A stretch of 40,299 nucleotides of DNA from Planctomycetota bacterium (GTDB taxonomy: Bacteria > Planctomycetota > JAJSAM01 > JAJVHW01): contig JAIOPE010000161.1 in assembly GCA_021414065.1 (NCBI GenBank), positions 1 to 40,299 of the forward strand, given 5' to 3'. The translations under genes were made by a program, and so were the position numbers. Position 1 is the stretch's first letter. Every line of letters starts with the position of its first letter. Positions 1-40,299 of the stretch are shown piece by piece. The notes under the pieces were generated by a model. That model was not told the origin of the DNA. It saw nothing but the letters and a program-made list of their open reading frames with translations, and did no database searches.

Positions 1-69
1 CGCCGTGAACGCGATCAGCGTCTTCGGCATGGTGTCATCGCGCATGAGAGGGATCTGGTCAGCCAACAT
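1..69 (-). CDS. Partial 5' end of an outward-facing gene (MLADQIPLMRDDTMPKTLIAFTA...), running off the window edge; function unknown
   Basis: ATG at 69 (reverse strand) preceded by GGAGG; identical to the mirror-image partial ORF at 40255..40299; only 23 codons visible. Confidence 0.4.
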   Translation of the reverse strand, partial: MLADQIPLMRDDTMPKTLIAFTA

Positions 70-70
70 C

Positions 71-91
71 TAGACCTCCGTGTTAGGTCTA
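71..91. promoter_or_regulatory. 7-bp stem / 7-nt loop hairpin (tagacct-ccgtgtt-aggtcta) covering the Shine-Dalgarno sequence of the flanking gene; mirror copy at 40233..40253
   Basis: Perfect palindrome read directly from the sequence; GGAGG lies in the 3' arm and the hairpin ends 2 nt before the ATG. Confidence 0.5.
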
Positions 92-139
92 TGTTAGCTT
101 GACCCTCCGACAGGCACCTGAGCGACGTGGAGAGGCCTC

Positions 140-375
140 GCCCGGATCATTCACGAAGCTCCGCGGGAGGACGGCGTGCGTCGCAGGAAGCACAAGCACT
201 TCACGCCGATTCTAGGTACGTTCGCGCCACGACACACTGTCCTGGGCGAGATCCGCGGAGTCGGCCGCAAGGCGGGACCCGCAGCGTCGGCTTTGTCAAG
301 CCACGCAAGGGTCCCGACGCAGCGGACGACCCGCGGGCTCGTCCAGGCGCGGAGCTTCGTGAATGATCCGGGCTA
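140..375 (+). repeat. Copy 1 of a ~235-bp terminal-inverted-repeat-bounded, miniature-transposon-like / structured-RNA-like element (arms gcccggatcattcacgaagctccgcg and its exact complement)
   Basis: The two 26-nt terminal arms are perfectly complementary; the ~100-nt core gagatccgcggagtcggccgcaaggcgggacccgcagcgtcggctttgtcaagccacgcaagggtccc... is shared with the copies at 4632, 37430 and 39951; TA at the right junction (374-375) forms the TAG stop of the 373..810 gene. Confidence 0.85.
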
Positions 376-810
376 GGACCGGACGGTCGCCGAGTCGGCC
401 TCGCCCACGCGCGCGCCGTCAGGCGCGGGCGCGTGGGGAGCGGCCGGGTCGAGGTCCCATCCGAACTTCTCTTTCATCATGCGCATCAGCCAAGGCACAG
501 CGACGCTCAGCGCTGCCTCTCGGATGATCGTGGACCACATCGACTGGGCCGGCGGGGGACTGCCCCTGTTCTGCGTCCCCGACCGGCTCTCGGACTTCCT
601 GGCGATGAACATCTTCACGAGCATGGCGCCGACGATCGCGCCGACGCCCGTGGACGCGACTGGGTTGTCGTGGATCATCTTCCCGAGGCCGAGTGGGTCT
701 CGGGCGTGCTCGGTGAGGCCGTCGGCCGCGCGTCGCCACTTGCGCCGAGCGACCTCTCGTTCCGCTCGGAGCGTCTCCCACTCCCGCTTCCAGTCGGTCT
801 CGTACTTCAC
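373..810 (-). CDS. DUF883/YqjD-like membrane-anchored protein (third gene of a yqjD-yqjE-like operon); GTG start
   Basis: C-terminal DNPVASTGVGAIVGAMLVKMF anchor motif resembles ElaB/YqjD proteins; GTGA start/stop overlap with the upstream gene at 807-810; the stop TAG is formed at the repeat-element junction. Confidence 0.55.
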   Translation of the reverse strand: MKYETDWKREWETLRAEREVARRKWRRAADGLTEHARDPLGLGKMIHDNPVASTGVGAIVGAMLVKMFIARKSESRSGTQNRGSPPPAQSMWSTIIREAALSVAVPWLMRMMKEKFGWDLDPAAPHAPAPDGARVGEADSATVRS

Positions 811-1247
811 GGCGCCTCGTCTCCGGGCGCGTCGCGCCCGTTGCGCAGCATCTCGACGTCGGCGTTGAACTCCGCGAGCGTCGCCGGGAATGCGAGGTCC
901 GGCGAGCTGAGTCGGCCGGTCGCGCGGACGGCGAACGCCACGCCGGTGCCGAGAGTGCCGATGCCGACGATCGCGAACGCCAGCCACTCGTCCATTCCGG
1001 TGACGTGCGCAACCAGAAGCGACACGCCGAAGAGGCTGAGCGTGAGTCCGACCGCGGCAACCAGAAGGGCGGCGACGAGAAGCGCCAGGCGGAGAACCAC
1101 CCGCTGCAGCACCACGCGCCCTTCGGACGCTGCCATCTGGGCAGTGTTGTGGGCCAGGTCCACGCCGGAATCAGCGAGTGCGCGGAGCAGTGCGAAGAAA
1201 CCGCGCTGCTCCGCGCCGGCCAGCTGCGAGGGCTCGGGCCGCTGCAT
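807..1247 (-). CDS. YqjE-like (DUF1469, holin-X-like) inner membrane protein
   Basis: Two hydrophobic helices; genome-typical GC3-rich codon usage; start ATG 5 nt after the upstream TAG; gene order DUF883-DUF1469 as in E. coli yqjD-yqjE. Confidence 0.7.
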   Translation of the reverse strand: MQRPEPSQLAGAEQRGFFALLRALADSGVDLAHNTAQMAASEGRVVLQRVVLRLALLVAALLVAAVGLTLSLFGVSLLVAHVTGMDEWLAFAIVGIGTLGTGVAFAVRATGRLSSPDLAFPATLAEFNADVEMLRNGRDAPGDEAP

Positions 1248-1252
1248 CGCTG

Positions 1253-1471
1253 CTACGACGTACGACGCCCGAGGAGGTACCCGAGGAGGGCGCCGACGCC
1301 GACGGCGACGAGGACCGACTTCACCGGGTTCTCCGAGATGTAGTCACGGGAAACCTCGAACTTCTCCTGCGTGCCGGTGACGACCTTGTCCTTGAGACGC
1401 GTTGCGGCCGCCTCGACCGTGCGAGCGCCTTCGACCAGCGCGCCATCAACTGCTGAAATGCGATCTGCCAT
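1253..1471 (-). CDS. DUF883 (ElaB/YqjD/YgaM) family ribosome-associated membrane protein
   Basis: C-terminal ENPVKSVLVAVGVGALLGYLLGRR anchor typical of DUF883; GAGGTG Shine-Dalgarno upstream of the ATG at 1471. Confidence 0.75.
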   Translation of the reverse strand: MADRISAVDGALVEGARTVEAAATRLKDKVVTGTQEKFEVSRDYISENPVKSVLVAVGVGALLGYLLGRRTS

Positions 1472-1573
1472 ACGACACCTCATTCGTTCGTTCTGTCCAT
1501 CCGACTCGGCGGAGACACTCCGCCGATCCGTGAGCGACTTCGTCTCGCGACGTCGTCCGTTCACCCACGCAGG

Positions 1574-2017
1574 CTATGACTCACCGTGTCTGCGCGCCAT
1601 GGGGTGGAACCCGACCCGGGCCTTTGCTTCGATCTCCGGCGTCGTCATCTTGTCTGCCGTCTCCACGCTGACGACGCACTTCTCGGGCACGGTCTTCTCG
1701 ATGCGCTTGCGCAGCTCGCCCTTCGCCTCTCCGGGTCCGAAGATGGCGATTGTCTGGGCACCTTGGAACGCGGCGATCACCCGGTCGTAGTACACGTCGA
1801 TCTGCGCGTTGAACTTGCGATCTCGGGAGTCGTCGTGCGGCACGTGCACGGCCTCGTGCTTGACGTTCGACCGCACGCCGTCGGTCCTTCCGAGTTGTCG
1901 TTCGACGTCCGACTCGATGATCGTCGTAGCCTCGACGTCGTTGATCAGAGTCACGACGATCGCGCGGCGGTGGTCGATCCACAGCGCCACGCGCTTTCCC
2001 TCTGCCTGATTGGTCAT
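1574..2017 (-). CDS. Conserved hypothetical cytoplasmic protein (147 aa; possibly host-attachment-like or eRF1-like, uncertain)
   Basis: Strong AAGGAG Shine-Dalgarno 7 nt upstream of the ATG at 2017; balanced amino-acid composition unlike the overlapping Arg-rich artefact ORFs. Confidence 0.75.
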   Translation of the reverse strand: MTNQAEGKRVALWIDHRRAIVVTLINDVEATTIIESDVERQLGRTDGVRSNVKHEAVHVPHDDSRDRKFNAQIDVYYDRVIAAFQGAQTIAIFGPGEAKGELRKRIEKTVPEKCVVSVETADKMTTPEIEAKARVGFHPMARRHGES

Positions 2018-2042
2018 CTGTTGCTCCTTCGGTTCACCGCGA

Positions 2043-2213
2043 CTACTTCGTCTTGATCGCTTCGCCGGCTTCCTTCACCTTGTCGCCGGTCTTGTCGAGC
2101 GCGCGGTCGAGCTTCTCGCCGGGCGTGTCGCCGCGGTTGTTGCAGGCGCACAGACCGAGACCGAGGAACGCGGACGTCAGGACGAGCAAGGCGGTCTTCT
2201 TCGTGATGTGCAT
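2043..2213 (-). CDS. Small lipoprotein (56 aa; entericidin/CsbD-like composition)
   Basis: MHITKKTALLVLTSAFLGLGLCAC signal peptide with a lipobox cysteine; GGAGA Shine-Dalgarno; it is the only plausible coding part of the 509-aa six-frame ORF 2043..3572. Confidence 0.65.
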   Translation of the reverse strand: MHITKKTALLVLTSAFLGLGLCACNNRGDTPGEKLDRALDKTGDKVKEAGEAIKTK

Positions 2214-2558
2214 GACGGACTCTCCGGATTGTGGTCCGGGGCCGACACCCGACTCATTCGGGGCCGCTCCCCGGTGCCGAGGGCGCGCCGCCGACGAGTT
2301 CGAACGGCGCCGACTCAGGTTAGACGCAGCCTGCGCCCGGTTGCCATGGGGTCGAACCCTACCTGGCCGCAGCAAGGGAGAGAGCAAGCACGTTCGCGCG
2401 CCGTGCGATCCGCTGGTCCGTCGGAAGTAGGGTTTCGCCCCATTGTTGGAATAGTCCGCCGGACCTAGTGTATGGGGCAGCGGGACCTTCGGCACGCGGG
2501 CATTCGCACTCAGCGGACGACGCACCAGCCGAACGGAGTCCTGCGATAGGAGCGCCAC

Positions 2559-2945
2559 ATGAGACTCTCGATACCAGCCGCACTTGCGGTCTGTCTTTTC
2601 ACGGCCGTCGCGTGCCAGAGCGCCACCGTCCGTGGGCCGCAGGGCCAGTCGGTCACCGCGAACGCACCGGTGTGGATGACGATCCACCGCGGCGAGTCGT
2701 CGCCCCTTGAGATCGGCATCGACCGTACGAAGTTCACGGGGCCGGTCACGGTTTCCATCTTCCAGCTCCCGAAGGGAGTCGAGTCCGACAAGGCGTCGAT
2801 CAAGGCCGAGACCACCAGCGTCACCTTCATCTTGAAGGCCTCGAAGACGGCCGACCTCGTCAGCAACCAGGCGGTCGGCATCACGGTCGAGGATCCGAGC
2901 GGGCGCCAGGCCACCCAGTTCGTCAATCTCACAGTCAACGACTGA
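2559..2945 (+). CDS. Lipoprotein (128 aa), paralog of the next gene
   Basis: Signal peptide with LFTAVAC lipobox; shares LPKGVxSDKASI / LPKGVDVVDSGSKI and overall architecture with the 2985..3392 gene. Confidence 0.75.
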   Translation: MRLSIPAALAVCLFTAVACQSATVRGPQGQSVTANAPVWMTIHRGESSPLEIGIDRTKFTGPVTVSIFQLPKGVESDKASIKAETTSVTFILKASKTADLVSNQAVGITVEDPSGRQATQFVNLTVND

Positions 2946-2984
2946 GCCCGGCTCCGGTCCCAAACAACGAGCAACGAGAACACA

Positions 2985-3392
2985 ATGAACAACAACCTCA
3001 TCGTCGCAGCATTCGCTCTCACGTTCGCAGCGTCCGCCCTTGCCGGATGCTCGAAGAGTTCGACCGTCCAGAGCGCTTCCAACGGCAAGCTGACGCTGGT
3101 CAAGCCGGCCGCCGTGACGATCTATCGCGGCGGGATGACGAAGGCGGCCGTCAAGATCCAGCGCGCGGACCTTCTCGGTGACGTCTCGATCGCGTTCACG
3201 GACCTCCCGAAGGGTGTGGACGTGGTGGACTCCGGCAGCAAGATCGTCGGCGACGAAGGCAGCTACACGCTGCGCGCCGGCGACGACGCGGCTCTCGTCG
3301 AGAACTACTCGGCGACCGTCACCGCCACGACCGGAACCGGAGGCATCGCAGTCTCCGAGCCGATCACCATCAGCGTCAAGGTCAAGCAGTAG
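2985..3392 (+). CDS. Lipoprotein (135 aa), tandem paralog of the 2559..2945 gene
   Basis: Signal peptide MNNNLIVAAFALTFAASALAGC; paralogous core. Confidence 0.75.
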   Translation: MNNNLIVAAFALTFAASALAGCSKSSTVQSASNGKLTLVKPAAVTIYRGGMTKAAVKIQRADLLGDVSIAFTDLPKGVDVVDSGSKIVGDEGSYTLRAGDDAALVENYSATVTATTGTGGIAVSEPITISVKVKQ

Positions 3393-3534
3393 GCGCCCGC
3401 GACCGCAGACAACCATGCGGTCCCGGTCGTCGGTCGTGAGCAGTGGATCGTCGGTGCGCCCCCGTTCGGCGGGTGGACCGACGGTTCGGGTTGAGTGTCG
3501 GGGGTCCGCGCGCGGCTCCGCACCAGGAGTTTCC

Positions 3535-4137
3535 ATGACGATGACGTGCCCCGGATCAGTTGTGAATTTCATCCTCGACGAGGAGCCCCATCTCCACAGC
3601 GTCGCGCGGAGGCTGACTCGATGCGAGTCCGACTCCGACGACCTGGTGCAGGAGACGCTGCTCCGGGCGTATCACGCGCGGGACCGGTTCCAGCCGGGTA
3701 CGTCGGCGCGTGCGTGGACGACGACCATCCTCCGCCGGCTCTTCCTCACCGGCGCGGTGCGTGCGAAGCGCGCCTGGATGCGGACGGACACCGACGCGTG
3801 CGGTCCGCTGGGAGTCTCTGTCGCCCGCGCGCCCGCGCAGGTTGACGCGAACTTCGAGTCGTCGCACGACCGGCCGGCGCCGGACATCCGGACGCTCGGC
3901 GACGGAATGGACGACGTCGTGAAGAACGCGCTGGATCGCGTCCCTGATGTCTATCGCACGACGTTCCTCCTCTCGGTGGTCCGCGGCATGTCGTACGAAG
4001 AGATCGGCCGACAACTCGGTGTGCCGCTCGGCACCGTCATGAGCCGAATCCACCGGGCGCGGGAGCGACTGAAGGGGGACCTCGGTCCGCACCGTCGCGA
4101 ACTCGCCGGGTCGGGCCTGCAGCGTCGCTGCAGTTGA
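3535..4137 (+). CDS. ECF (sigma-70 family) RNA polymerase sigma factor
   Basis: Region 2 (DLVQETLLRAYHARDRFQPGTSARAWTTTILRR) and region 4 (MSYEEIGRQLGVPLGTVMSRIHRARERL) motifs; AGGAG Shine-Dalgarno before the ATG at 3535; the upstream part of ORF 3178..4137 is a low-complexity artefact. Confidence 0.85.
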   Translation: MTMTCPGSVVNFILDEEPHLHSVARRLTRCESDSDDLVQETLLRAYHARDRFQPGTSARAWTTTILRRLFLTGAVRAKRAWMRTDTDACGPLGVSVARAPAQVDANFESSHDRPAPDIRTLGDGMDDVVKNALDRVPDVYRTTFLLSVVRGMSYEEIGRQLGVPLGTVMSRIHRARERLKGDLGPHRRELAGSGLQRRCS

Positions 4138-4184
4138 TCGCCGGGCCGGAAGTCGGCACTCGTCAAACTCGAAGGAGAAACACC

Positions 4185-4337
4185 ATGGGTACGCTGCTCA
4201 TTGTCATCCTCGTCCTGATGCTCCTCGGAGCCATTCCGACGTGGCCGCACAGCAAGAGTTGGGGCTACTACCCGAGCGGGGGCATCGGGCTCGTCCTGGT
4301 CATCCTCGTGGTCCTTGTCCTTGCCGGCCGGATCTGA
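4185..4337 (+). CDS. DUF3309 family small membrane protein
   Basis: MGTLLIVILVLMLLGAIPTWPHSKSWGYYPSGGIGLVLVILVVLVLAGRI matches the DUF3309 pattern; GAAGGAG Shine-Dalgarno. Confidence 0.75.
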   Translation: MGTLLIVILVLMLLGAIPTWPHSKSWGYYPSGGIGLVLVILVVLVLAGRI

Positions 4338-4482
4338 GCGAAGTCGGGGCGCGGATAGGCCCTCTGGCGGATCGGCCATGAAGGGACCTGTGCGTCAGTT
4401 TCACGGCAAGCATGTCGCCGCTCGCCTCGTGGCGGTGAGCAGCGCCTGGAAGTTCCCCGTCGGCCACGGATAGGCGGTTCCC

Positions 4483-4632
4483 ATGCTCGATACCCTGATC
4501 ATCGTCCTCGTCATCATGTGGCTGCTCGGCCTCGTCACGTCCACCACGCTCGGTGGGTTCATCCACGTGCTGCTGGTGATCGCTGTCATCGCCGTGCTGC
4601 TCCGGCTCATTCGCGGCCGAAGGGCGGTCTAG
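4483..4632 (+). CDS. lmo0937-family small membrane protein (49 aa; not in the ORF track)
   Basis: MLDTLIIVLVIMWLLGLVTSTTLGGFIHVLLVIAVIAVLLRLIRGRRAV read from the sequence; the TAG stop at 4630-4632 overlaps the first base of repeat copy 2. Confidence 0.65.
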   Translation: MLDTLIIVLVIMWLLGLVTSTTLGGFIHVLLVIAVIAVLLRLIRGRRAV

Positions 4633-4865
4633 CCCGGACAATGCACGAGGGTTCGCGTGAGAACGGCACGCATCGTAGGAAACAGAAGCACTTCACGCCG
4701 ACTCAAGGCACGTTCGCGTCGCGACACACTGTCCTGGCAGAGATCCGCGGAGTCGGCCGCAAGGCGGGACCCGCAGCGTCGGCTTCGTCAAGCCACGCAA
4801 GGGTCCCAACGCAGCGGACGGCCCGCGGGCTCGGCCAGGCGCGAACCCTCGTGAATTGTCCGGGC
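4632..4865 (+). repeat. Copy 2 of the element bounded by 26-bp terminal inverted repeats
   Basis: Arms gcccggacaatgcacgagggttcgcg and cgcgaaccctcgtgaattgtccgggc are 25/26 complementary to each other, yet differ from copy 1 at 6 arm positions, 5 of them compensated on the partner arm; TA flanks both ends. Confidence 0.85.
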
Positions 4866-5002
4866 TAGATGGGACCGAGCCGAGTCGTCGGAATCGTGCT
4901 CATCGCGGCCGGGGCGTACGTCCTCTTCACGCGCAAGTCCTAGGTAGCCGTCCAAATCACTCACCGCTCGGTTTCCCGCGCGGCCTTCCGGAGGCATCGT
5001 CC

Positions 5003-5161
5003 ATGCAGAAGTTCATCCGTGTTGCAGTCGTCGTCGCAGTCTTGGCGCCCATGCTCCTCGCCATCACCGGGTGCCGCACCAGCGCTCAGAACGGCGCGCT
5101 GATCGGCGCCGGCGCGGGCGCGCTCGGCGGCTACGTGATCGGCAACGAGCGCGACAAGTAG
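5003..5161 (+). CDS. Small glycine-zipper lipoprotein (52 aa)
   Basis: MQKFIRVAVVVAVLAPMLLAITGC lipobox followed by GALIGAGAGALGGYVIG; GGAGG Shine-Dalgarno. Confidence 0.65.
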   Translation: MQKFIRVAVVVAVLAPMLLAITGCRTSAQNGALIGAGAGALGGYVIGNERDK

Positions 5162-5186
5162 TCTCCCGGTCGGCACCGCATTGGTC

Positions 5187-5233
5187 GGCGGGGAGGATCT
5201 GGCAGCCATCCGGGCTGTCCGATCCTCCCCGCC
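5187..5233 (+). terminator. 13-bp perfect stem (extendable to ~21 bp) hairpin after the lipoprotein gene, followed by TCGATTCCCG
   Basis: ggcggggaggatc...gatcctccccgcc lies 26 nt after the stop codon; resembles the hairpin at 14995..15033. Confidence 0.5.
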
Positions 5234-37415: not shown

Positions 37416-37429
37416 GGCCCGGATGCCTA

Positions 37430-37675
37430 GCCCGGATCATCCACGAAGCTCCGCGCCTGGGCGAGCCGGCCTCGTCGACGACTGGTCGTCCGCTGCGCTC
37501 AGACCCTTGCGTGGCTTGACAAAGCCGACGCTGCGGGTCCCGCCTTGCGGCCGACTCCGCGGATCTCGTCCAGGACCGCGAGTTTTCGTGCGAATGAGCC
37601 TCGTATCGGCGTGCATCGCAAGCCCTTCCTACGTTGCACGCCGTTCTCCCGCAGAGCTTCGTGAATGATCCGGGC
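37430..37675 (-). repeat. Copy 3 of the terminal-inverted-repeat-bounded element (inverted relative to copies 1 and 2); its right arm supplies the ATG of the downstream gene
   Basis: Arms gcccggatcatccacgaagctccgcg and cgcagagcttcgtgaatgatccgggc; core is the reverse complement of the copy-1 core; TA at both junctions; both arm mismatches become G.U pairs on the minus-strand transcript. Confidence 0.85.
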
Positions 37676-38018
37676 TAACGACGACGGCCCGCGCCCGCCG
37701 GACGCCGTGCCGCCGCCGGATGCGTACCCGGAGCTCGCGCGAGAACTGCAGTCCGCACGGCTGCACACTGCGCTCTGGCGCATCGCGCGCTGGACGGGCG
37801 CGGTCTTGCTCACGCTCGTCGCGTTGTTCTTCGGGTTCGTCCCGGGCATCCCCGGCTTTCCGCTGTTCTTCCTCGCGCTGTTCCTGATCGCGGCCGACTA
37901 TCCGCCGGCGCGGCGACTCGGCGTACGGCTCCTGCGCAAGTTCCCGCGTGTCCGCCGCGCCGTGCCGAAGCGCTGGCGTCGCACGAAGGGGCCGACGCGG
38001 AAGGGTGGTGGCGCATGA
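37665..38018 (+). CDS. PGPGW-domain small transmembrane protein; annotated ATG lies inside the terminal arm of repeat copy 3 (true start may be downstream)
   Basis: FFGFVPGIPGFPLFFLALFLIAADYPPARR resembles the PGPGW transmembrane family; TGA/ATG overlap (ATGA) with the downstream EEP gene. Confidence 0.6.
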   Translation: MIRANDDGPRPPDAVPPPDAYPELARELQSARLHTALWRIARWTGAVLLTLVALFFGFVPGIPGFPLFFLALFLIAADYPPARRLGVRLLRKFPRVRRAVPKRWRRTKGPTRKGGGA

Positions 38019-38743
38019 AGTTCCGCCTCCTCTCGTACAACGTTCACCAGTGCGTGGGCACCGACGGGCATCGCAGCGTCGAGCGAGTGGCCGACGTGAT
38101 CCGCCACTACGCACCCGACGTCGTCTGCCTCCAGGAAGTCGTCTGGCACGAGCATGACCAGCACGCACAACCGCAGCGACTCGCGCAACTCCTCGGCATG
38201 GCGCACGGCGCGGTCGGGCTCTATCGCAACCTCAAGGACGGTGCGTGGGGCAACCTGACCCTCTCGCGTTTCCCGATCGAGGAGTCCGAGACGCTCGACC
38301 TGTCGCTCCTCGTCCGCGGGAAGCGCACGCGCGGAACGCTGTACACGCACCTGCGCGTGGACCGGCGCACGCTCCACCTCTTCAACCTCCATTTCGGCCT
38401 CGCCGGGTTCGAGCGCTCCGCCCAGATCGCGCGCGTGCTCGACCGCGCCGACGAGGTTGCCCCGCACGGCGCACCCGTGGTCCTCGTGGGCGACACGAAC
38501 GACTGGCGTAACCGGCTCTGTTCGGGCGAGCTCGCGAAGGCCGGGTTCACTGCGGCGACCTGCCACGCGAAGGACCCGGGACCAGCGACGTTCCCCAGCA
38601 AGAGCCCCGTCGCCGCACTCGACAAGCTGTTCCTGCGCGGGCACGTTCGCGCGCAGCGTCACTTCGTCTCGCGGCTCGCCGACGCGACGCTGGCGTCGGA
38701 CCACCTGCCCGTGCTGATCGAGATGGAGCTCACGTCGCCGTGA
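38015..38743 (+). CDS. Endonuclease/exonuclease/phosphatase (EEP) family protein (YbhP-like)
   Basis: LLSYNV, VVCLQE, GDTND, SDHLPV catalytic blocks of the EEP fold. Confidence 0.85.
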   Translation: MKFRLLSYNVHQCVGTDGHRSVERVADVIRHYAPDVVCLQEVVWHEHDQHAQPQRLAQLLGMAHGAVGLYRNLKDGAWGNLTLSRFPIEESETLDLSLLVRGKRTRGTLYTHLRVDRRTLHLFNLHFGLAGFERSAQIARVLDRADEVAPHGAPVVLVGDTNDWRNRLCSGELAKAGFTAATCHAKDPGPATFPSKSPVAALDKLFLRGHVRAQRHFVSRLADATLASDHLPVLIEMELTSP

Positions 38744-39951
38744 GCGCGGGCTCGGACCAACTGTCCGTCCCGCGCGCGCCGCGCGGCGTGCGGGACGTCT
38801 TCCGCCGCCGCCTCGGACGTCGCATCCGCAACGCCTTCACCGTCGCCGAGGGGAACTCCATCGAGCCGCTCGGTCCGGGCTCTGCGTTCTTCACGCGCAT
38901 GGCTTCTGCGATCGACGCGGCCTGCGTCGCAGTGGACGTCGAGATGTACCTGTGGCACGACGACGAGGTGGGACACCTCTTCGGCGACGCGCTCGTGAAC
39001 GCCGTGCGACGCGGCGTGCGGGTCCGCCTGCTCGTGGACGCGCAGGGCGCTCGCGACGCGATGGGCCTGGTGAACGACGTGGGGGCGGCGGGCGCCGACG
39101 TGCGCGTGTTCAACCCATTCCGGCTCCGGGTCTGGAGCCGGTACATCCATCGCACGCACAAGAAGATCGTCGTCGTGGATGGATGCGTGGCCTACACGGG
39201 CGGCGCCGGCTTTTCGCTGCACTTCTCCGGCTCGAAGGGCGGCGAGCATCCATGGCACGACCGCATGTACGAGATCCGTGGACCGGTGGTCGCGCATCTC
39301 GAAGCTGCGTTCGAGGCCGACTTCTGGCGCTGGGACCCGAGGTGTGCGCCGTGCGACGGTCCGGATGTGACGATCCCGGTGCCGCAGGCGCCCCTCCAGC
39401 TCGGCGGCTCGCAGATACGCCTCCTGCGCGGCTGGCCCGACGCGCGCGACTTCCGACCCGTCCTGCTCGAGGCGATCCGTGCAGCGAGCGTCCGCATCTG
39501 GATCGGCACGCCGTACTTCCTCCCGCCGCACTCGGTGCGCAAAGCGCTCTACCAGGCGGCGGCGCGCGGCGTGGATGTGAGGGTGATCCACCCGTCTCTC
39601 TCGCACGCGAACTCGATCCTGTATCACGCGGTGCGCGCCCGGTACGGCCGCTACCTCCGCCTGCGCGTGCAACTCCACGAGTACGAATCGGCCTTCTACC
39701 ACGCGAAGACGCTCGTCGTGGACCGCACACTCGCGGTCGTCGGAAGCAGCAACTTCGATTCGTGGAGCTGGAAGCGCAACGCTGAGATCGACCTCGCGAT
39801 CACCGACGCGCCGACCGTCGATCGGATTGCCGCACTCCTCGACGCCGACTGGGCTTCGAGTCGACCGATCACCAGCGAAGACGCTCGCATCCGCAGCTTC
39901 ATCGCAAGCCTGCGCCAGCGTTTCTCCGAGTCGATCGAAGACTGGCTCTAA
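38740..39951 (+). CDS. clsB: Cardiolipin synthase / phospholipase D family protein (ClsB-like); GTG start
   Basis: Two HKD motifs, HRTHKKIVVVDGCVAYTGGAGF and YHAKTLVVDRTLAVVGSSNFD; GTGA overlap with the EEP gene; EEP-cls order mirrors E. coli ybhP-clsB. Confidence 0.85.
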   Translation: MSAGSDQLSVPRAPRGVRDVFRRRLGRRIRNAFTVAEGNSIEPLGPGSAFFTRMASAIDAACVAVDVEMYLWHDDEVGHLFGDALVNAVRRGVRVRLLVDAQGARDAMGLVNDVGAAGADVRVFNPFRLRVWSRYIHRTHKKIVVVDGCVAYTGGAGFSLHFSGSKGGEHPWHDRMYEIRGPVVAHLEAAFEADFWRWDPRCAPCDGPDVTIPVPQAPLQLGGSQIRLLRGWPDARDFRPVLLEAIRAASVRIWIGTPYFLPPHSVRKALYQAAARGVDVRVIHPSLSHANSILYHAVRARYGRYLRLRVQLHEYESAFYHAKTLVVDRTLAVVGSSNFDSWSWKRNAEIDLAITDAPTVDRIAALLDADWASSRPITSEDARIRSFIASLRQRFSESIEDWL

Positions 39952-40184
39952 CCCGAATCATGCACGAAGCTCCGCGCCTGGACGAGCCGGCGGGTCGCCC
40001 GCTGCGTTGGGACCCTTGCGTGGCTTGACAAAGCCGACGCTGCGGGTCCCGCCTTGCGGCCGACTCCGCGGATCTCGTCCAGGACGGTGTGTCGCCGTGC
40101 GAACGAGCGCCGGATCGGCGTGCACCGCAAGCCCTTCCTACGTTGCACGCCGTTCTCCCGCGGAGCTTCGTGAATGATCCGGGT
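39951..40184 (-). repeat. Copy 4 of the terminal-inverted-repeat-bounded element; its first base completes the TAA stop of clsB
   Basis: Arms acccgaatcatgcacgaagctccgcg and cgcggagcttcgtgaatgatccgggt; the terminal a...t pair replaces the g...c seen in the other copies; part of the window-bounding inverted repeat with copy 1. Confidence 0.85.
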
Positions 40185-40254
40185 GAGGCCTCTCCACGTC
40201 GCTCAGGTGCCTGTCGGAGGGTCAAGCTAACATAGACCTAACACGGAGGTCTAG

Positions 40255-40299
40255 ATGTTGGCTGACCAGATCCCTCTCATGCGCGATGACACCATGCCG
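40255..40299 (+). CDS. Partial 5' end (15 codons, MLADQIPLMRDDTMP...) of an outward-facing gene identical to that at 1..69
   Basis: GGAGGtctagATG, with the Shine-Dalgarno sequence inside the palindrome 40233..40253; nucleotide-identical mirror image of the window start. Confidence 0.4.
   Translation, partial: MLADQIPLMRDDTMP

Follow-up and report, generated by a model that had tools for sequence, protein, structure and literature searches.

Four copies of a short repeat in a Planctomycetes MAG contig are, in our judgement very probably, members of a family of non-autonomous DNA transposons (MITEs) that insert at TA, carry a structured core kept by selection, and are moved in trans by a putative DDE transposase. 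The window, by which we mean the whole stretch of 40,299 bp that was analyzed, is one complete contig with a G+C content of 70%. Within it the element shows the generic attributes of a bacterial MITE: it is short, multi-copy and non-coding, it has terminal inverted repeats (TIRs) and a TA duplication, and it has empty sites. The family is real and well defined and is a new one, from an under-sampled phylum.

Copies, relatives, and genomic setting

Repeat finding, MAFFT, and BLAST recovered four copies of 234–246 nt, at exactly the coordinates given in a first-pass annotation that had been made from the letters alone, and found no further copies in the window, weak ones included. Pairwise BLAST E-values among the four range from 1e-48 to 1e-72. 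The copies, together with a flanking sequence (the X flank) that adjoins two of them, are arranged as follows.

X flank, left: 1–139, minus strand; 25–139 is the reverse complement of 40185–40299, 100% identical
Copy 1: 140–373, plus strand, 234 nt; TIR-L 140–165, variable arm 166–241, core hairpin 242–346, TIR-R 348–373
Copy 2: 4632–4865, plus strand, 234 nt; TA at 4630–4631 and 4866–4867
Copy 3: 37430–37675, minus strand, 246 nt; TA at 37428–37429 and 37676–37677
Copy 4: 39951–40184, minus strand, 234 nt; TA at 39949–39950, opposite side joined to the X flank
X flank, right: 40185–40299, plus strand; meets its element at the same position and in the same relative orientation; truncated where the contig ends

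The element has the termini GCCCGG...CCGGGC, and its 26-nt TIRs, annotated as perfect or near-perfect, are complementary at 26, 25, 24, and 24 of 26 positions across the four copies. The nearly invariant core reported at first pass is equally evident: it spans ∼100 nt (242–346 in copy 1) and differs by 4%–7% among copies 1, 2, and 4. The arm between the left TIR and the core had been called hypervariable. It does vary, by 14%–36%, and is better described as two subtypes, with copies 1 and 2 differing by 17%, copies 3 and 4 by 14%, and the two pairs from each other by 28%–36%. The TIRs group differently (copies 1, 3, and 4 versus copy 2), and because this grouping disagrees with the variable-arm subtypes, the copies must be mosaics. 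Copy 3 carries a 12-nt insertion at 37472–37483, AGTCGTCGACGA in element orientation, on the 3′ side of the core hairpin, and a change of CCCRAC to CTGAGC that breaks part of a GGGACCC/GGGUCCC helix; it may be a decaying copy.

The contig holds ∼35 ordinary chromosomal genes, including those for ECF sigma factors, an ABC-F ATPase, M16 peptidases, a Ser/Thr kinase, TPR proteins, TatA, a HAD hydrolase, an endonuclease/exonuclease/phosphatase-family protein, and a PLD-family protein (MCE9638153.1). The gene order over ∼28–40 kb recurs in six related contigs from metagenomes or MAGs. Between 27990 and 39951, comparison with three distant relatives (L011, L013, and L015) gives 55%–60% amino-acid identity and a conserved order of L-PSP, transglutaminase, TPR, kinase, HAD, a 410-aa protein, TPR, a 110-aa protein, Exo_endo_phos, and PLD.

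Plasmid and phage collections were searched with the whole element or the first 5 kb of the contig, and viral contigs and GTDB genomes with 29-mer and 20-mer patterns from the core. In the sequence libraries searched, the family was found nowhere besides two metagenome fragments. These came from a metagenome scan that returned five loci, of which only L003 (complete, ∼72% identical) and L005 (∼75% identical, cut by the contig end), both from JGI metagenomes, are true homologs. The other three (L001, L002, and L004) are chance matches of 22–28 nt in likely coding sequence, and a single 20-mer match in the GTDB genomes (L008) is a coincidence, also in coding sequence. Two independent Logan contigs of the same sample, from run SRR15633504 (L006 and L007), end inside elements, ∼30–50 nt into the TIR; such breaks are expected of multi-copy DNA and confirm that short-read graphs leave the repeats unresolved. 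The repeats likewise explain the assembly breaks seen here in the source organism.

The L005 copy is interrupted within its left TIR by a group II intron (704–1577) with a truncated RT/maturase ORF at 1015–1461. The intron begins with GUGCG at ∼704, and Rfam places domains D1–D4 at 728–868 and domains V/VI at 1483–1577; the junction reads ...TA/GCCCGCTTCGTTCA/GUGCG...intron.../GCAGGGTTCGCG. It lies in the same orientation as the aligned element (plus) and the upstream ORF. This separate, inserted intron is the sole intron signal in the family, and a group II intron was rejected as the identity of the element itself.

Insertion at TA and on stop codons

Copies 2 and 3 are each flanked by a duplicated TA. 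With a slash marking each end of the element, the junctions read GTC-TA/GCCCGG...CCGGGC/TA-GATG at copy 2 and ATGCC-TA/G...C/TA-ACGACGAC at copy 3. Deleting copy 3 together with one TA yields TGA-7nt-ATG CCT AAC GAC GAC, in frame with the downstream gene. The relative L011 has a TGA-8nt-ATG arrangement that matches this reconstructed empty site, and in the relatives the TPR gene and the ∼110-aa gene lie 8 nt apart or overlap. Because deleting both TAs or neither breaks the frame, the TA is a true 2-bp target duplication.

The insertion of copy 3 falls after codon 2 of a membrane protein gene now called at 37665–38018, splitting codons 2 and 3. The original ATG is left upstream at 37423, an in-frame ATG within the TIR (37665) takes its place as the start, and the beginning of the protein changes from MPNDD... 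to MIRANDD.... The old ATG opens an 81-codon ORF (37423–37668) that runs through the whole element, and its TGA overlaps the new ATG as ATGA, an overlap that would be compatible with translational coupling.

The remaining copies lie on stop codons. At copy 4, the TA at 39949–39950 and the terminal A of the element (39951) form the TAA stop of the PLD-family gene (38740–39951); the C terminus of this protein, ...IEDWL*, is invariant in seven homologs, and in relatives a convergent gene follows directly. At copy 1, the TA at 374–375 and the last base of the element form the TAG stop of a minus-strand gene at 373–810. At copy 2, the TA and the first base of the element form the TAG stop (4630–4632) of a DUF5670 gene at 4483–4632. 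The L005 copy sits on the TAG stop of its upstream ORF, bringing the total to four of five mapped insertions. This prevalence follows from the termini, which start with G (A in copy 4) and so regenerate TAG or TAA in either orientation.

The targets read C-TA-G or C-TA-A. In the window TA is scarce (304 occurrences), and CTAG is strongly depleted, with only 11 sites, five of which are at, or were created by, element junctions. Among the called genes, 20 end in TGA, 14 in TAG, and 2 in TAA. At the sites of copies 3 and 4, the six syntenic relatives have no element, and a scan of ∼70 kb of their DNA found no copy.

Considered together, the junctions, the stop-codon sites, the scarcity of CTAG, and the copy-free relatives show that the element is mobile and inserts at TA, usually within CTAG or CTAA. 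The first-pass suggestion of a TA-targeting miniature transposon is thus upheld by the duplicated TA around copies 2 and 3, the reconstructed empty site, the insertion into a conserved stop codon, and the six empty relatives. Two observations sit less easily with a MITE: copies 1 and 4 have no TA on the side that faces the X flank, and L003 has no recognizable TA duplication.

A conserved core in a covarying hairpin

In both metagenome homologs the core is frameshifted by 1-nt indels, which rules out a protein-coding element, and a six-frame protein search (a chimeric translation; spurious ORF calls in related elements) returned no matches. The ORFs that cross the copies are therefore non-coding, as had been proposed. 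A covariance-model search against Rfam 15 gave no match at the gathering score, and at E ≤ 10 returned only generic hairpin noise of 11–18 bits against thresholds of 50–89; the element had not been recognized as any named RNA family, and even lax filters supply none.

Each copy folds as one long hairpin with three parts: a terminal stem of 25 bp, a side arm that is less conserved, and the ∼100-nt core hairpin. For copy 1, ΔG is −155.7 kcal/mol with z = −11.6, and the opposite strand is similar. The consensus on a six-sequence alignment (A5) contains 81 pairs, with 94.2% of cells paired and 20 pairs changed on both sides, a covariation signal that rests on only six sequences from three lineages. 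None of 500 shuffles reached the consensus values, and controls in which the partner was slid were 32%–36% paired. In the terminal stem pairing is complete (100%), and 11 of the pairs covary. Relative to copy 1, the TIR of copy 2 differs at 6 of 26 positions (five paired and the unpaired position 12), and all five paired changes are compensated in the opposite arm; in copy 4, both terminal bases have changed jointly from G..C to A..T. The core hairpin combines covarying distal helices with invariant internal loops. Its 7-bp GGGACCC/GGGUCCC helix has an AA/GCA internal loop on each side, and this pseudo-two-fold layout suggests binding by a dimeric protein.

Segments of the element diverge at very different rates. 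Among copies 1, 2, and 4, the 4%–7% seen in the core compares with 4%–31% in the TIRs and 17%–30% in the variable arm. Between L003 and L005 the corresponding values are 10%, 23%, and 47%, and between the window copies and L003 they are 25%–29%, 31%–42%, and 45%–46%. In every comparison the core shows the lowest divergence, and it evolves 2–4 times slower than the rest of the element, TIRs included. Within-genome pairs that include copy 3 differ by 15%–19% in the core and 14%–36% in the variable arm. Since in a typical MITE only the TIRs are constrained, a core that is more conserved than the TIRs reverses the usual pattern and argues for a function of the core. This indicates a selected structured RNA or a protein-binding hairpin. 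The core would bind a protein, perhaps a dimeric one, either in co-transcribed RNA or as a site for transposition or for a host factor, and in transcripts the perfect 25-bp stem would be a substrate for RNase III, as in Correia elements.

The first-pass annotation had also offered a structured non-coding RNA or terminator module as a candidate. The structured part is supported by the conserved, covarying fold, which does not itself decide between action as RNA and action as DNA. The terminator part has no direct support: an intrinsic terminator was rejected because a T-run, or U-tract, is absent 3′ of the hairpin. A bridge-RNA- or omega-RNA-like guide was rejected as well, the variable arm having no complementarity of ≥9 nt to the flanks of any copy.

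It is possible, if on balance unlikely, that transposition has merely spread what is chiefly a structured non-coding RNA gene, or a cis-regulatory 3′ UTR or RNase III module, with the core as the functional RNA. The excess conservation of the core over the TIRs in three independent comparisons, with invariant loops and covarying stems, would be expected of such an RNA. So would a strand bias: all four one-sided changes in the terminal stem give G-U in the plus orientation, and across terminal stem and core G-U outnumbers A-C by 8 to 2, a weak asymmetry. The orientation of the L005 intron implies transcription of that same strand, and we take both observations as no more than hints of plus-strand transcription. 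Against an RNA gene stand the lack of an Rfam match and of any promoter or terminator consensus (none of sigma-70 type was found in 1–5200), and the finding that, of the four window copies, three lie antisense to the genes on either side, copies occurring in both orientations relative to neighboring genes. Moreover, a palindromic DNA site for a dimeric protein, or arm-to-arm conversion, could give the same compensation.

A broader proposition, which we consider improbable, is that the core hairpin and the covarying terminal stem together form the functional unit, as a mobile structured RNA or a folded DNA recognized by its shape, and that the element is not a passive deletion derivative of an IS. 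If so, the unit might serve its own transposition, or might serve the host as a portable module for RNA processing or regulation.

The hairpin might alternatively act as folded single-stranded DNA for an HUH transposase or an integron-type tyrosine recombinase, by analogy with REP/RAYT, IS200/IS605 ends, and attC. The terminal stem is indeed compensated whatever its sequence, and extrahelical and internal-loop bases are conserved. However, the 2-bp TA duplication and the 26-bp TIRs together bear the signature of a staggered DDE cut, and HUH and integron-type systems produce no such duplication; GTTRRRY boxes are absent, as is any integron or RAYT context, and the element is far larger than REP. 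We regard this alternative as very improbable.

The X flank and the mobilizing enzyme

The first-pass annotation missed that copies 1 and 4 have a 100% identical left flank in common, which reaches the contig ends. This X flank joins both copies at the same nucleotide, with no TA there (TC is in its place at copy 1), and has an 8-nt palindrome, GAGGCCTC, at the element junction. A 7-bp palindrome, TAGACCT-N7-AGGTCTA (71–91), overlaps a GGAGG ribosome-binding site. An ATG at 70 opens an outward ORF, gene X, that leaves the contig after its first 23 codons (MLADQIPLMRDDTMPKTLIAFTA...), with 87% GC3. Among 5.8 billion proteins there was no candidate for this 23-residue N terminus, none sharing three 5-residue words with it, and searches by tblastn on plasmids and against Pfam found nothing. 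The X flank is probably a multi-copy mobile element, which would account for the contig ending within it.

In the relatives, the PLD gene is followed by a block of aminotransferase, M16 peptidase, and NifU genes that is missing from the window; the absence would fit an insertion or a rearrangement at the position of copy 4 and X.

One tentative explanation, to which we give somewhat less than an even chance, is that X is a mobile element in its own right, with site-specific insertion at the outer edge of the MITE's left TIR, much like IS110/IS1111-type or other repeat-targeting elements. The junctions are identical on two MITE subtypes, and identity drops sharply at 139/140. The left TIR is also the site hit by the L005 group II intron, so it attracts other mobile elements, and by synteny with the relatives the place directly after the PLD gene, now taken by X, should hold an aminotransferase gene. 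DEDD (IS110) transposases typically start with G-I-D-x-x-K. The N terminus of X lacks such a start, and only 139 nt of X and one junction are seen.

The alternative that X is the transposase of an autonomous parent appears rather unlikely to us. Copies 1 and 4 would then be its structured 5′ end, and copies 2 and 3 would be that end mobilized alone; the corresponding layout, about which we are equally doubtful, would run from outer TIR through core, inverted inner TIR, and a 69-nt leader to gene X. Such a parent would explain why both copies meet X at one and the same nucleotide and in matching orientation, with TA only at the outer TIR, and why the assembly stops within X at either end of the contig, as multi-copy sequence would lead one to expect; the mosaic subtypes show, in addition, that copies recombine. 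Yet the two X flanks match at 100% across 115 nt, whereas the copies that it adjoins differ from their first base and by 28% in the variable arm. Because X is identical and the adjoining copies have diverged, two independent junctions fit better than recent copies of one unit. The 23-residue N terminus of X, furthermore, matches no transposase family.

A retron-like msr-msd RNA, with the terminal repeats as a1/a2 and X as a downstream reverse transcriptase, seems to us extremely improbable. A unit of ∼235 nt with long inverted repeats and a long hairpin, found twice 69 nt upstream of a gene, does resemble such a system, but copies 2 and 3 sit among ordinary genes with none of this kind next to them, the TA duplications, empty sites, and stop-codon insertions show transposition, and the weak strand signal points in the direction opposite to X.

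For the MITE that we favor, the enzyme would be encoded elsewhere: no transposase, integrase, or reverse transcriptase was found among the ∼35 genes of the 40-kb contig, and the plasmids, phages, viral contigs, and GTDB genomes searched yielded neither an IS with a matching terminus nor further copies. A 2-bp TA duplication combined with TIRs is a hallmark of IS630/Tc1-mariner and also of the IS427 group of IS5. A DDE transposase of either type, encoded elsewhere in the genome, would cut and paste the element in trans, an assignment that says how the element works and not to which family it belongs. The earlier proposal of derivation from an IS630/Tc1-like element fits the TA target and the TIRs; as neither an autonomous partner nor a matching IS terminus was found, that family is unproven, and elements of the IS5/IS427 group duplicate TA as well. 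Divergence among the TIRs reaches 31% inside a single genome while their complementarity stays perfect, which sequence-specific binding by one transposase would not predict. Several cognate transposases, arm-to-arm conversion, or recognition based on structure could each produce this pattern.

Relation to known mobile repeats

A close parallel is RUP, a MITE of pneumococcus thought to be mobilized by IS630-Spn1 and frequently located beside or within IS elements (PMC2229807). Like RUP, the present element is small, non-coding, and non-autonomous, with TIRs and insertion at TA, and here two copies abut a repeated, gene-bearing element. In contrast, RUP is 107 bp and AT-rich, its TIRs match an IS630 member, and no conserved internal structure or function has been reported for it; the element described here is 234 nt and 70% G+C, no partner IS was found for it, and its core is more conserved than its TIRs.

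Correia/NEMIS elements of Neisseria have 26-bp TIRs and a TA duplication. In their transcripts the ends pair and are cut by RNase III, the expression of adjacent genes can change, and no transposase is known (PMC2229807, PMC10969869). They differ from our element in being 100–155 bp long with an IHF site and sigma-70 promoters, motifs that were not found in it, and in having no sequence relationship to it; host phylum and base composition are unrelated too. The element is thus an analog of Correia/NEMIS and not a member, and processing by RNase III is something we infer. ERIC/IRU elements of enterobacteria are imperfect palindromes, transcribed and intergenic, often at the 3′ ends of genes, whose RNA hairpin affects mRNA stability (PMC10969869). 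Correia/NEMIS and ERIC alike form end-to-end RNA hairpins that are processed by RNase III or RNase E, with effects on their neighbors (PMC2229807, PMC10969869). ERIC, at 127 bp, has another sequence and another host, whereas the fold here is branched and includes a separately conserved core of 100 nt.

Among autonomous elements, IS630/Tc1-mariner and IS5 (IS427 group) have terminal inverted repeats and duplicate TA in CTAG-like sites. They differ in encoding a DDE transposase, of which there is none in the window. Two further candidates were rejected. The termini GCCCGG...CCGGGC lack the R″/R′ boxes (RYYYAAC/GTTRRRY) of an attC site, and the neighbors are syntenic chromosomal genes; REP/RAYT, a palindrome of 20–40 nt with a GTAG/CGTC head and a Y1 transposase, does not accord with a 234-nt unit, a TA duplication, and a window without a RAYT.

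To our knowledge, MITEs have been little documented in Planctomycetota. The family provides an unusually clean case of a TA-targeting element that survives in a 70% G+C genome by using the TAs of stop codons. If the excess conservation of the core over the TIRs and the compensation in the terminal stem hold in a larger alignment, the core would represent a new structured RNA or protein-binding motif, and the family would become a test case for structure-dependent constraints on MITE ends. It is not related in sequence to RUP, Correia/NEMIS, or ERIC, and its unusual traits are a core more conserved than its TIRs, full compensation in the terminal stem, the regeneration of stop codons on insertion, and another repeated element joined to its end.
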